Below, piece after piece: positions 57,576 to 60,679 of a stretch of 64,000 nucleotides of DNA (position 1 is the first letter of the stretch; each line of letters opens with the position of its first letter). This DNA is from Escherichia coli (lineage in GTDB: Bacteria > Pseudomonadota > Gammaproteobacteria > Enterobacterales > Enterobacteriaceae). Made by a program: the position numbers and the translations under genes. Under the pieces are notes generated by a model, which saw only the letters and a program-made list of their open reading frames with translations, was not told the DNA's origin and searched no databases. The stretch lies in NCBI RefSeq assembly GCF_003334405.1, contig NZ_QOWM01000005.1; one strand, 5' to 3'.

Positions 57576-58454
57576 TTACGCCAAATTTACAGAGAAGATT
57601 TCCTCGAGCATTGCCCCCGCCAGACGCTGCGCTGAACAGAGTCGTGGCATCCCCAGCGCGACAGTTTGCCAGCGTTGGGTCACTGACCAGCAAACGGGTT
57701 GTTTATCTGCCGTGGTCCACTTTCCCAGCCAACTTAAAAAATCAGCATGCTCCCCGCCCGTCGGAACGGTCGAAGAGGCAAACCACTGATGGTAATAGTG
57801 ACGCGTGGTCGGTGCCGCATTGATACTCTCTGCCAGATGTTGTGTCGCTTTCTCGAGCAAATCACCCAGCAACAACGCCACCGCTTGCGGGCTTCCCAGA
57901 CGGCAGGCATCGCCAAATGCCCCCCAGCGCAACTCCTCCAGAACGATAAAACAGCGCCCAGGCAACGACCAGGCGTTATACGCCCCAGCACGCCAGCGGG
58001 TAAAAATTTGCTCGCTCTGATCACCTGCCTGCACCAGTAGGCCTCGTTGCGTTAACGCCTTTTCCTTCCAGCGACAACGGGCTGAAAACCACTCATACAA
58101 GGCGGCAATTTGCTGGGGGAGCTCCGGGAAAGCAGAGTGCTGGCGGTGATCCATTTTTTGCAGCAGCGCCAGATGCTGCGCGATCTGCGTCAGTGCCAGA
58201 TGACCGGGATCCAGCATCGACGCCAGTTTTTCCACCAATGTCAGACGCAGGCTAAGCGGCGCATTTAACATGCCGCCGTTCGTCCATGTCTGAAGCTGCA
58301 CACGCGAAAGAAGTTCCTGCATCAGTCGTTCACGAAACTGCTGCTGATGGGCTTGTGGAAGGCGGGCATCATCACCCTGCGCCAGATCCACTAAAAAGCG
58401 GGGATAAACCGACTCCAGCACGCGACCGGGGCCGTCAAGTAACGTCTTGGTCAA
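57576..58454 (-). CDS. yjcZ: Uncharacterised protein YjcZ (292 aa, apparent TTG start overlapping crfC stop)
   Basis: ORF track; no recognisable catalytic motif; 4-bp overlap with upstream crfC. Confidence 0.75.
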   Translation of the reverse strand: MTKTLLDGPGRVLESVYPRFLVDLAQGDDARLPQAHQQQFRERLMQELLSRVQLQTWTNGGMLNAPLSLRLTLVEKLASMLDPGHLALTQIAQHLALLQKMDHRQHSAFPELPQQIAALYEWFSARCRWKEKALTQRGLLVQAGDQSEQIFTRWRAGAYNAWSLPGRCFIVLEELRWGAFGDACRLGSPQAVALLLGDLLEKATQHLAESINAAPTTRHYYHQWFASSTVPTGGEHADFLSWLGKWTTADKQPVCWSVTQRWQTVALGMPRLCSAQRLAGAMLEEIFSVNLA

Positions 58455-60679
58455 TATCGTTCTGCCGTGAAAAGTGTTTGAATATCATCGCGTAACAGCT
58501 GGGCGTCGGTGTAAATCCAGCCGTGAGTCATCACAGTCTGCTGCAATTGCTGCTGCATCAGCCTGACCACCGATTCATTTTGTTGACGCAGAGCCAGACT
58601 TTCGCGTAAACGCGTCTGTAATTCCGTCAAACATGAAGCGAACTCAGCGAAAAAAGTATTCATGCCTGCCGTAACAGATTCATCGACCTGCTCTGCCAGA
58701 ACTTTAGCCATTTGTTGGCAATAGAGATCGACTTCTGCGCTTAATGCTCGTTGCAACACACTGTAATCAACCGTTTCTGTCGGTGATTTCTCATTTCCCC
58801 GTCCCCAGTCGGGCTGATTCAACCAGCGCGAAAAAGTCTCACGCACAACGCCTAAACGCGTGCTCTGCTCGTCCGTTGCTTCCTGGCGCGAAATGACTTC
58901 ACTGAACAGCTGGCGAGTGTTGAAGTGGGGAACTACGCCGTGAAAAACAGGAAAATGAAACCCAGGACGAAACCCTGACTCGCTCAATTCCATTTTGACT
59001 TGTTGCTCAATGGGGCGAATAACATCGGTTAACACCCGGCAAAGGGTGGATTCAAGCTCGGCAAAACGCAGCGTAAAGTCGCGACTGATGGTGTTCTGCG
59101 CCGTCTGTAACAGTGTCTCACAGCGGGTACGAATCTCGCTTAACGGCTCCGAATCATCCTGAAACAAGGCGGCTAACTGCACCTTCAGCGCATCTTGCTG
59201 TTGACGCAGAAAGTGGTTGGCGGAGGTCAGGGCCAGCTCGATTTCATGTTTAATCTCGCCGCTCACCTGCGCCTGATTGAGTTGCAATAGCTGCAAACTT
59301 TCTTCGATCTGGTGGATATTTTGCCGCAATTGTTCACAAGCGACGTTTAACCCGTGCGCACGAAAATCCAGGTATTCCCGCGCCTGCTGCGCGTAATTCA
59401 ACAGTTTATGCGCGGCAGATCGCAGAGCATACAACGAGGCGTTAGCGTAAGCGGCATGAAGCAACGCCTGAATTGGCTGGGCGAACAGCGAATCTTCCCA
59501 CAACTGATCGGCAGCATGACGAATATGTTCGAGGTCCGCCAGATCGGCATGACGCCAGCGCCTGCCAAGCGCGGCATGGGCAAAATCTTCCACCCAGCGT
59601 TGTTGCTCTGGCGGTGGTAACTTACCGTTGTTGGCTAACTCATAGCGCGCCCGATTCGCCAGGTAGCCCCACATCGACGACACCGGAAATATCTGCTGTG
59701 GCGTAATACAGCCTTTCATCAGCGTCCCGGAAATCAGTGCCCGCACCTGGTCGGCGTCGTCACTGTTACGATCCTGTTGATCGAACTTATTGACCAGCAC
59801 GTACAGCGGCACCGATTGCCCCACCGCCAAAATCGCCTCACGGACCTCTTCATCGGAGATCGATTTCAGTTGCGTATAATCCAGCACCGCCAGTACCGCC
59901 GAGGCGCGTGCCAGCTGCTGGTTAAGCATTTTTTGCAGATGCGGTTGCCCGGCTTCATTTGGCCCGGGGGTATCCAGTAACGTCAACTGACCGGGATAAC
60001 TCTCCAGCCCCGCTAGATGGACAAACTCCACTTCAATCACGGGAATATGCTCAATGGCGGCGTAAGCAGAAAAAGGAAAATCGACGTCCAGCGCCTTCGC
60101 CAGTCGCACTAAATCATTCAAACTTTTCAGACAATGAAAAATAGGCTGGGCACCCAGATAATATTTTTCGAAAGCGACGCCATTTTCGATCCGCTGCATA
60201 AGCGCACGCATATCTTTATCTATTTCCAGCACATCGGTCAGATGCTTAATATCGCAATCACGCAGGCGCTGTTGTAATTGTTGAATTAAACAATCGATTG
60301 GCGCGACATGTGAAAAATGCAGTACCGGTTCCTTTTGCCCGGGCGTATGGCGAATAAGCGTCGGCAGCGCAGTCATTGGGCGATTACGATTAGGCAGAAC
60401 CTCCGTACCAACAATGGCATTAATGGTGGTTGATTTCCCTGCTTTCATGGTACCGACAATTGCAAGCACCATTTCCAGTCGGGAAATTTTACGCAACTCA
60501 TTATTCAGCATCGCGTGACGTTCGGCGATATTAGGCTGACTCCAGGGTAAAGCCAGTTGTGGCGCGTCGTCTCCGGGTACAGAGAGAGGCATTTTTTCCA
60601 GTAACTGCAACTGTTGGCGAGAAAGCTGTAACAGGCGTTCAGCCTCCTGACTTAACTCATACAGGGTCTGTGTGTACAT
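58451..60679 (-). CDS. crfC: Dynamin-like GTPase CrfC (YjdA), 742 aa
   Basis: ORF track; P-loop GTMKAGKST, DTPG (G3) and NKFD (G4) motifs; long coiled-coil-rich C-terminal region. Confidence 0.85.
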   Translation of the reverse strand: MYTQTLYELSQEAERLLQLSRQQLQLLEKMPLSVPGDDAPQLALPWSQPNIAERHAMLNNELRKISRLEMVLAIVGTMKAGKSTTINAIVGTEVLPNRNRPMTALPTLIRHTPGQKEPVLHFSHVAPIDCLIQQLQQRLRDCDIKHLTDVLEIDKDMRALMQRIENGVAFEKYYLGAQPIFHCLKSLNDLVRLAKALDVDFPFSAYAAIEHIPVIEVEFVHLAGLESYPGQLTLLDTPGPNEAGQPHLQKMLNQQLARASAVLAVLDYTQLKSISDEEVREAILAVGQSVPLYVLVNKFDQQDRNSDDADQVRALISGTLMKGCITPQQIFPVSSMWGYLANRARYELANNGKLPPPEQQRWVEDFAHAALGRRWRHADLADLEHIRHAADQLWEDSLFAQPIQALLHAAYANASLYALRSAAHKLLNYAQQAREYLDFRAHGLNVACEQLRQNIHQIEESLQLLQLNQAQVSGEIKHEIELALTSANHFLRQQQDALKVQLAALFQDDSEPLSEIRTRCETLLQTAQNTISRDFTLRFAELESTLCRVLTDVIRPIEQQVKMELSESGFRPGFHFPVFHGVVPHFNTRQLFSEVISRQEATDEQSTRLGVVRETFSRWLNQPDWGRGNEKSPTETVDYSVLQRALSAEVDLYCQQMAKVLAEQVDESVTAGMNTFFAEFASCLTELQTRLRESLALRQQNESVVRLMQQQLQQTVMTHGWIYTDAQLLRDDIQTLFTAERY

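Follow-up and report, generated by a model that had tools for sequence, protein, structure and literature searches.

The gene pair crfC–yjcZ, which lies within a 64,000-nucleotide stretch of Escherichia coli DNA (the window), very probably constitutes the RdcA/RdcB system (CrfC/YjdA plus YjcZ), the activator of the c-di-GMP cyclase DgcE, which triggers biofilm formation. The locus is real, yet already known. Locus and sequence are those of the system that Pfiffer et al. (2019, PMC6510439) characterized in E. coli K-12, and we find no difference from it: among complete E. coli genomes, 5419 of 5426 carry the window segment, which is 100 % identical to K-12 MG1655 and encodes products of 84.4 and 32.9 kDa, the sizes given in PMC6510439. 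RefSeq annotation names the genes crfC and rdcB and labels YjcZ "diguanylate cyclase regulator RdcB family protein". The original prediction, made from sequence alone, held that the partner of the GTPase has no known function; this is outdated, as YjcZ is RdcB, needed together with RdcA for DgcE activation (PMC6510439, PMC13031359). That submitted finding contains little novelty: publications of 2007, 2013 and 2019 had covered both genes, the partnership between them and their role in the pathway, a 2026 study confirmed this, and the RefSeq names already reflect it. What the present analysis adds is the TTG start of rdcB and the mapping of an intragenic FliA promoter onto the window, together with the lack of conservation of the clamp-binding motif, a confident model of RdcB that has no structural relatives, and a patatin-linked sister cassette.

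The locus, its GTPase and the partner protein

Two minus-strand ORFs of 742 and 292 aa were predicted between proP and phnA (yjdM), beside an AT-rich region of about 400 bp, and each of these features was confirmed (GC 0.31 for the AT-rich region; Table 1). Because each ORF has hundreds of full-length homologues, crfC and rdcB are real genes rather than chance reading frames; the locus is syntenic in Citrobacter and Enterobacter. An Rfam scan of positions 57000-62000 gave no match in or adjoining crfC/rdcB, and only known naRNA4 repeats downstream of yjdM.

Table 1. Features of the crfC–rdcB locus, in window coordinates.
Feature	Position	Strand	Basis or remark
proP	55810..57312	-	neighbour gene
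rdcB / yjcZ CDS	57576..58454	-	ORF, TTG start, 292 aa; Pfam PF13990
YjcZ/RdcB family signature LEELRWGAFGD, aa 172-182	57909..57941	-	family alignment
TTGA overlap, crfC stop TGA and rdcB start TTG	58451..58454	-	4 nt, sequence
crfC / rdcA / yjdA CDS	58451..60679	-	ORF, ATG start, 742 aa; NCBIfam NF007368; RefSeq
Intragenic FliA (sigma-28) promoter inside crfC, driving rdcB: TAAAGTTCTGGCAGAGCAGGTCGATGA	58680..58706	-	motif; ChIP-seq and reporter (literature)
G4 NKFD, aa 297-300	59780..59791	-	sequence; invariant in alignment
Dynamin_N G domain, aa 72-277	59849..60466	-	Pfam PF00350, E 7.3e-18
G3 DTPG, aa 236-239	59963..59974	-	sequence; invariant in alignment
G2 catalytic threonine T103	60371..60373	-	sequence
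G1/P-loop GTMKAGKST, aa 76-84, K82	60428..60454	-	sequence
Reported beta-clamp-binding motif 41-QLALP-45	60545..60559	-	sequence; PMC6374313
Divergent AT-rich crfC–yjdM spacer, 400-401 bp, 31 % GC	60680..61079	.	composition; putative site of crfC promoter
yjdM/phnA	61080..61415	+	neighbour gene

CrfC (84.4 kDa) is a soluble dynamin-like GTPase. It matches the NCBIfam model NF007368, "clamp-binding protein CrfC", over residues 1-742 of 742 with 1597.2 bits, above the curated full-length cut-off of 1146, and is on this basis a CrfC/RdcA equivalog. Membership of the dynamin superfamily is evident both from the Dynamin_N profile match and from the motifs (G1 GxxxxGKS/T, G2 Thr, G3 DxxG, G4 N/TKxD): the three originally pointed out, GTMKAGKST, DTPG and NKFD, were all located, and with the G2 threonine they occur in the expected order, an insertion of about 120 aa separating G2 from G3. 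Neither T103 nor any of the G motifs varies across an alignment of 17 CrfC orthologues, and the G domain as a whole hardly does. GTPase activity and oligomers have been reported, and the protein has been described as soluble and devoid of a membrane-binding motif (PMC6510439, PMC6374313); a Kyte-Doolittle scan likewise found no hydrophobic segment (19-residue maximum 1.21).

With Nostoc BDLP1, B. subtilis DynA, ETEC LeoABC (Eleos) and Campylobacter DLP1/2, CrfC has in common a dynamin-type G domain that bears G1-G4 and precedes a C-terminal half that is long and helical, and with canonical bacterial dynamin-like proteins it shares self-association (PMC6510439); BDLP (2j68) is its best sequence match in the PDB (E 2e-6), confined to the P-loop region. 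In other respects it departs from those proteins. The membrane-binding paddle or hydrophobic tip is missing by the same hydropathy measure, and in place of a tandem or fused second dynamin the gene downstream of crfC encodes YjcZ (PF13990), yjdA having been called "a notable exception" to the tandem arrangement (PMC4159319). The output of CrfC is activation of a signalling enzyme, whereas that of the canonical proteins is membrane fusion or fission.

RdcB (32.9 kDa, pI 8.3) is also soluble. The statement that it has no recognisable motif was right insofar as neither NCBIfam nor PADLOC has a model for it, but wrong with respect to Pfam: PF13990 (YjcZ) matches residues 21-287 of 292 over model positions 1-272 of 272 with E 1.3e-143, a full-length assignment to the YjcZ/RdcB family. 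Within the family signature, 85 members with identities down to 20 % all keep L175 and G181, and almost all keep W177 and G178. The AF2 model is all-alpha (pLDDT 91.5, pTM 0.91). Searched with Foldseek it had no match in the PDB below E = 1, and in AFDB50 it retrieved family members only; against PDB sequences, the RdcB profile gave only coiled-coil compositional matches and the single sequence none. RdcB probably has an all-alpha fold peculiar to its family, which carries the LEELRWGxFGD motif and the invariant arginines R167, R185, R218, R271 and R277.

Coupling of the genes and a promoter within crfC

The predicted 4-bp stop/start overlap was found and reads TTGA, the start codon of rdcB being TTG, not ATG; orthologues have ATGA or an equivalent overlap at this junction. 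A CrfC-type dynamin gene thus lies directly upstream of, and overlaps, a YjcZ gene, as in the RdcA/RdcB system. Neighbourhoods of the pair were compared through 11 exact-protein contig look-ups and BLAST searches of E. coli genomes and plasmids. In these neighbourhoods co-occurrence was uniform: a CrfC-type dynamin stands immediately upstream of YjcZ, in overlapping order, in every related locus with upstream DNA (9/9), and gene order and stop/start overlap persist across the whole range from 100 % to 22 % identity. The description of a dynamin-like GTPase, CrfC, and YjcZ arranged for translational coupling stands.

As an account of a two-gene operon the description is incomplete, in that yjcZ is also driven by a FliA promoter of its own, located within crfC at a distance of 226 nt from the rdcB start codon (PMC4183435, bioRxiv 10.1101/188474). 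FliA ChIP-seq places a site there (FAT score 19), and deleting fliA lowers yjcZ expression, measured by RNA-seq, from 52 to 1 (PMC4183435); the promoter is active in a reporter fusion (bioRxiv 10.1101/188474), and a similar FliA motif occurs in Citrobacter at the same distance from rdcB. Because this promoter lies within crfC and drives rdcB, the pair is not a simple operon. RdcB would be made both through translational coupling to crfC and from the FliA-dependent promoter, and the latter would link its supply to the flagellar regulon.

The spacer between crfC and yjdM is AT-rich in Citrobacter and Enterobacter as well. We found no FliA-like motif in it, and an earlier prediction of a FliA promoter upstream of crfC has been called incorrect (PMC4183435). 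Sigma-70-like matches in the spacer did not exceed what chance would give in AT-rich DNA, and no promoter was called. In some strains the spacer is a site of IS1 insertion.

Activation of DgcE and other accounts of the pair

In K-12, activation of the diguanylate cyclase DgcE depends on both RdcA and RdcB, which act through the MASE1 domain of the cyclase (Pfiffer et al. 2019, PMC6510439). This domain is membrane-embedded and is where RdcA docks; two-hybrid assays detected RdcA-RdcA, RdcA-RdcB and RdcA-DgcE(MASE1) interactions, and deletions of rdcA, rdcB or dgcE have the same effects on macrocolony matrix, CsgD, csgB::lacZ and c-di-GMP, effects that are non-additive (PMC6510439). The c-di-GMP made by DgcE induces csgD, curli and cellulose, and through YcgR it slows motility (PMC6510439). 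A FRET-To-Sort transposon screen published in 2026 found dgcE, rdcA and rdcB enriched among low-c-di-GMP mutants (PMC13031359), and an earlier search for mutations that suppress the motility defect of pdeH had yielded yjdA and yjcZ (Girgis et al. 2007, cited in PMC6510439). One observation counts against the assignment: deletion of yjcZ in otherwise wild-type cells has no motility phenotype (PMC4183435).

Hydrolysis of GTP by RdcA is needed for DgcE activation (Pfiffer et al. 2019, PMC6510439). The GTP-locked variant T103D neither complements, activates DgcE nor binds it, and the P-loop mutant K82A is active and complements; from these the authors proposed that nucleotide-free RdcA is the activator and GTP the inhibitor (PMC6510439), in which case RdcA/RdcB would signal that the GTP pool shrinks as cells enter stationary phase. 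The view of GTP level as a signal thus derives from two point mutants. We infer that RdcB would serve as an obligate stoichiometric cofactor of the RdcA GTPase, possibly as a GTPase-activating factor, a nucleotide-release factor or an organiser of oligomers; a GAP or exchange-factor role is speculation.

Assignment of the pair to DgcE leaves the literature on clamp binding and nucleoid partition by CrfC (PMC6374313) unexplained, and this literature supplies the principal alternative, which we regard as improbable: that CrfC oligomers bind the beta sliding clamp via N-terminal QLALP, hold sister forks together and promote nucleoid equipartition, YjcZ being incidental. QLALP is indeed present at residues 41-45, an N-terminal QLxLx motif, the NCBIfam family takes its name from clamp binding, and published work reports that CrfC binds the clamp and forms foci at the poles of nucleoids, and that anucleate cells arise when crfC is deleted or carries Q41A (Ozaki 2013, as related in PMC6374313). 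The motif nevertheless falls in the only variable N-terminal stretch of CrfC and is unconserved in orthologues: it becomes PLTLP (Q41 to P) in another Escherichia lineage at 88 % identity, its region is deleted in E. fergusonii, NVLPLHFS takes its place in Citrobacter, Kosakonia, Enterobacter and Leclercia, and in the orthologue alignment the region differs in five other genera. Deletion of crfC moreover left DnaN localisation and the sister-chromosome pattern unchanged, and the authors of that study state that the hypothesis is refuted (Makela et al. 2021, PMC8379921); clamp binding is GTP-independent and the crfC deletion is without a growth defect (Pfiffer et al., PMC6510439). Nor does clamp binding account for the obligate YjcZ partner or for control by FliA.

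It is most improbable that the K-12 pair itself works as a dynamin system for membrane remodelling, membrane repair or defence against phages, in the manner of B. subtilis DynA or LeoABC/Eleos, for although CrfC has weak PADLOC matches (LeoBC, E 5.8e-6, 23.7 bits; LeoA, E 3.2e-5, no stretch passing alone) and paralogous dynamin-RdcB-like-patatin cassettes, termed a putative defence system (PMC12922286), occur on genomic islands and plasmids beside defence-type genes, those matches reflect generic G-domain similarity and none is significant for CrfC or RdcB as Eleos components, RdcB having no PADLOC match at all; the K-12 pair is core genome (5419/5426 genomes) and syntenic in Citrobacter and Enterobacter, its locus lacks patatin, whether as a gene or a remnant, as well as defence neighbours and a second dynamin in tandem, CrfC has no membrane paddle or hydrophobic segment, and the known phenotypes of the pair are fully accounted for via DgcE (PMC6510439). 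The hint of phage resistance or membrane remodelling in the original prediction is accordingly unsupported at this core-genome locus, where patatin, defence neighbours and a significant PADLOC model are all missing; it makes sense only where the paralogous island cassette is concerned.

A mobile sister cassette with a patatin gene

A dynamin–YjcZ cassette is widespread at 22–34 % identity to the K-12 pair, on E. coli islands, on IncF plasmids and in other Proteobacteria. Its dynamin is homologous to CrfC over the full length (34 % identity, E 3e-121), including the unusual insertion in the G domain; its second protein is likewise a member of Pfam YjcZ, 22-31 % identical to RdcB; and gene order and stop/start overlap are as in rdcAB. 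The cassette differs in having a third, overlapping gene, whose product is a patatin-like phospholipase in which the motifs GGGxxG, GxSxG and DGG are intact. Such a gene follows dynamin–YjcZ in all seven of the distant YjcZ lineages examined and is absent from all five rdcAB-type lineages. One copy of the three-gene cassette lies at NZ_CP021207 1130288-1134641. In K-12 rdcB is followed by 263 bp and then proP, and two cassette patatins, compared with the window by tblastn, gave no match at E <= 1. Whereas the K-12 pair is core genome and without patatin, the cassette is mobile or accessory (2615/5426 E. coli genomes, on CP4-44-like islands and plasmids), and defence-type genes (WYL, SNF2, bpMoxR-VWA, HEPN and NERD-helicase) lie beside it. 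The cassette of PAI-CFT073-aspV, "island 8", was described in 2026 as a paralogue in E. coli and a putative defence system, and is induced in lysogens (PMC12922286); beyond that transcriptome paper we found nothing on a dynamin-patatin system in the literature, and no YjcZ-like gene was found in phage genomes. The 18 rdcAB-type proteins group in a single clade embedded in a more diverse set of 67 sequences.

We tentatively consider a scenario that is conceivable, if somewhat doubtful, in which core-genome rdcAB is a domesticated, effector-less offshoot of the widespread mobile dynamin/YjcZ/patatin cassette. In the cassette the complex would be a nucleotide-state switch gating a membrane-active phospholipase, with a likely function in conflict or phage defence and a response perhaps of abortive-infection type; in Enterobacteriaceae the lipase would have been lost and the switch rewired to a different membrane-anchored enzyme, DgcE. 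The observations behind this scenario are the distribution of patatin, the nested position of the rdcAB clade, the setting on islands and plasmids among defence-type genes, and induction in lysogens.

The sister cassette with its patatin effector offers a comparative handle on how RdcB may act on its GTPase, on GTP as a candidate physiological signal and on clamp binding as perhaps no more than a side activity specific to E. coli. If it is true that dynamin/YjcZ is a portable "GTP-state switch" gating different membrane enzymes, an input system for a second messenger would be tied to a candidate immune module, and bacterial dynamins would gain a new class of partner.

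Identity and known function of the gene pair

The locus is real, and the original prediction delimited it correctly: the two minus-strand reading frames, their 4-bp stop/start overlap, the proP and phnA (yjdM) neighbours and an AT-rich region of 400 bp were all recovered, and the three GTPase motifs claimed were located in the larger product. The segment is 100 % identical to that of E. coli K-12 MG1655 and occurs in 5419 of 5426 complete E. coli genomes. CrfC contains a Dynamin_N match (aa 72-277, E 7e-18) and scores 1597 bits (cut-off 1146) against the NCBIfam equivalog "clamp-binding protein CrfC". 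Predicted masses of 84.4 kDa (CrfC) and 32.9 kDa (RdcB) agree with PMC6510439, and both proteins lack a hydrophobic segment, consistent with their published description as soluble.

Features of the crfC-rdcB locus (window coordinates or CrfC residues)
Feature	Position	Strand	Remarks
crfC CDS	58451..60679	-	742 aa, ATG start; RefSeq name crfC
rdcB CDS	57576..58454	-	292 aa; RefSeq name rdcB
TTGA stop/start overlap	58452-58454 = TTG	-	4 nt; rdcB start codon TTG
crfC upstream spacer, toward yjdM	60680-61079		400 bp; 31 % GC
FliA (sigma-28) promoter motif TAAAGTTCTGGCAGAGCAGGTCGATGAA	58680-58706, within crfC	-	FliA ChIP-seq; 226 nt upstream of rdcB start
QLALP motif	CrfC aa 41-45 = 60545-60559	-	
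G1 GTMKAGKST	CrfC aa 76-84		
G2 threonine	CrfC T103		
G3 DTPG	CrfC aa 236-239		
G4 NKFD	CrfC aa 297-300		

YjcZ can no longer be regarded as a partner of unknown function: it is RdcB, needed together with RdcA for DgcE output (PMC6510439). Pfiffer et al. (2019; PMC6510439), who renamed YjdA/CrfC as RdcA and YjcZ as RdcB, reported identical and non-additive phenotypes for rdcA, rdcB and dgcE deletions in macrocolony matrix, CsgD level, curli reporter activity and cellular c-di-GMP. In their two-hybrid assays RdcA associated with itself, with RdcB and with the MASE1 membrane domain of the diguanylate cyclase DgcE. Because the hydrolysis-defective T103D variant was inactive and lost DgcE binding while the P-loop variant K82A was active, these authors inferred that RdcA acts as the activator in its nucleotide-free form, with GTP as an inhibitor; RdcA/RdcB would, they proposed, respond to the drop in GTP as cells enter stationary phase. 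Both K82 and T103 are present in the window sequence. According to the account in PMC6510439 of Girgis 2007, rdcA and rdcB were first isolated as suppressors of a pdeH motility defect, and a 2026 genome-wide FRET-To-Sort screen again placed dgcE, rdcA and rdcB among low-c-di-GMP mutants (PMC13031359). From the latter study ynjH, outside the window, may be a further component. The locus as presented is already known, and characterised as encoding RdcA/RdcB (alias CrfC/YjcZ), an activator of DgcE.

In an alignment of 17 orthologues the CrfC G domain, including an unusual insertion of ~120 aa, is nearly invariant. Orthologues from other genera have 784 aa, 42 more than E. coli CrfC; 8 aa near position ~35 (window ~60575) and 32 aa after ~512 (~59140) are missing from E. 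coli and close Escherichia proteins, and the 784-aa proteins of every other genus examined have both segments. RdcB is covered over its whole length by Pfam YjcZ (PF13990; E 1e-143). AlphaFold reached a pLDDT of 75.5 from 24 close homologues, and of 91.5 (pTM 0.91) from 85 members of the family with identities as low as 20 %, with an all-alpha model of ~13 helices. Foldseek returned no PDB match to this model below E = 1, an AFDB50 fold search retrieved only YjcZ-family proteins, and searching the PDB by sequence and by profile gave only compositional coiled-coil matches; for now the predicted fold is family-specific and offers no functional clue. The family carries the signature LEELRWGxFGD (aa 172-182) and (near-)invariant residues W154, G157, R167, C168, R185, R218, W224, P253, P270, R271, R277 and E285. 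Speculatively, the invariant arginines would fit the idea of the RdcB authors that it is a GTPase-activating or nucleotide-release factor.

Expression of rdcB and flanking sequences

A sigma-28 promoter was located inside crfC by FliA ChIP-seq, and fliA deletion lowered yjcZ RNA from 52 to 1 (PMC4183435); a reporter fusion confirmed promoter activity there (bioRxiv 10.1101/188474). A Citrobacter locus contains a similar motif, TAAAGCTTTAGTGGCGCAGGTCGATAT, again 226 nt from the rdcB start, and no FliA-like motif was found in the AT-rich spacer upstream of crfC. Since the internal promoter drives rdcB, the original description as a two-gene operon is incomplete: the two genes do not depend on one promoter alone. 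On internal transcripts rdcB translation would be uncoupled from crfC and would need de novo initiation at TTG, behind what the sequence indicates is a weak Shine-Dalgarno. The annotated TTG is supported by an ATG at the aligned position in orthologues, whose N-termini align with that of K-12. That start codon suggests that RdcB synthesis in E. coli is lowered or depends more on coupling. Citrobacter, Enterobacter and more distant orthologues have ATG within ATGA where K-12 has TTG within TTGA.

In some E. coli strains IS1 occupies the crfC-yjdM spacer ~345 bp upstream of the crfC start (3925-4622 of one such contig stretch, L017), which may alter expression of crfC or yjdM. Between yjdM and yjdN lies a tandem array (61430-61809, plus strand; 3.8 copies of a 100-bp unit, 97 % identity), the known REP325/naRNA4 element, whose copies match Rfam naRNA4 (RF02564; 95-111 bits vs gathering 59.5) and which yields two identical spurious 66-aa ORFs at 61482 and 61582.

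Conservation of the dynamin-YjcZ pair

YjcZ-family proteins (200 clusters at 50 % identity, E <= 1e-3) extend far beyond Enterobacteriaceae, with AFDB matches in Pseudomonas, Burkholderia, Cupriavidus, Acinetobacter, Psychrobacter and Vibrio and a weaker one in Paenibacillus; all 85 aligned members match PF13990. Co-occurrence, proposed earlier as a check on the pair, was found throughout: at all loci that include upstream DNA the YjcZ gene directly follows a CrfC-type dynamin gene with overlapping stop/start, and the pair is thus a conserved module. Two subtypes were separated by identity to K-12 RdcB. The rdcAB type (at least 33 %) is syntenic in Citrobacter and Enterobacter (phnCD-yjdN-yjdM, divergent from crfC-rdcB, then proP), a more distant lineage at 42 % identity retaining the yjdM side, and lacks a third gene (patatin in 0/5 lineages). 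The distant type (22-31 %) has a third overlapping gene in 7/7 lineages, encoding a patatin-like phospholipase with intact GGGxxG, GxSxG and DGG motifs. A neighbour-joining tree, rooted by midpoint only, groups the 18 rdcAB-type proteins into a single clade set among 67 sequences of greater diversity, which would fit rdcAB as a derived branch that lacks patatin.

The name CrfC goes back to a motif reported to bind the beta clamp, 41-QLALP, and to a role in sister-fork co-localisation (PMC6374313). The motif occupies the sole variable stretch of an otherwise nearly invariant N-terminal half (17 orthologues): one Escherichia lineage (88 % identity) has P for Q41 (PLTLP), E. fergusonii has a deletion of the region, and NVLPLHFS replaces it in Citrobacter, Kosakonia, Enterobacter, Leclercia, Lelliottia and Huaxiibacter. 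Deletion of crfC, moreover, left DnaN localisation and sister-chromosome pattern unaffected (Makela et al. 2021, PMC8379921). On both grounds we reject clamp binding as the explanation of the conserved pair; it is at most a lineage-specific side activity. The suggestion of defence or membrane remodelling finds no support at core rdcAB, where we detected neither a patatin gene or remnant nor defence neighbours, and only noise-level PADLOC matches.

A paralogous patatin cassette

Outside the window, 2615 of 5426 complete E. coli genomes carry a cassette of dynamin, RdcB-like and patatin genes joined by 4-nt overlaps (NZ_CP021207.1 1130288-1134641; locus L011, 7361-11714). It lies on a CP4-44-like island that also has antirestriction, DUF932 and CbtA/CbeA genes, and its dynamin shares 34 % identity with full-length CrfC. 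On IncF and other plasmids of Klebsiella, Enterobacter and E. coli a variant at 62 % identity is flanked by IS elements; elsewhere the neighbours are WYL, SNF2 and AAA genes, bpMoxR-VWA and HEPN genes, or a NERD-helicase gene. Cassette contexts are of island or defence type (loci L009, L010, L011, L014, L015 and L016). PADLOC v2 has no model for the cassette, and no YjcZ-type cassette was found in phage genomes. In the metagenomic L014 (5585-8004) the dynamin is split into two ORFs (536 and 267 aa) that precede the YjcZ and patatin genes, recalling the split LeoB/LeoC dynamin. Cassette genes, ~30 % identical to core RdcAB, were the most strongly induced in Kapi1 lysogens and were called a putative defence system (PMC12922286), so our observation is only partly new. 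The comparative lead, and the main source of interest, is this patatin cassette.
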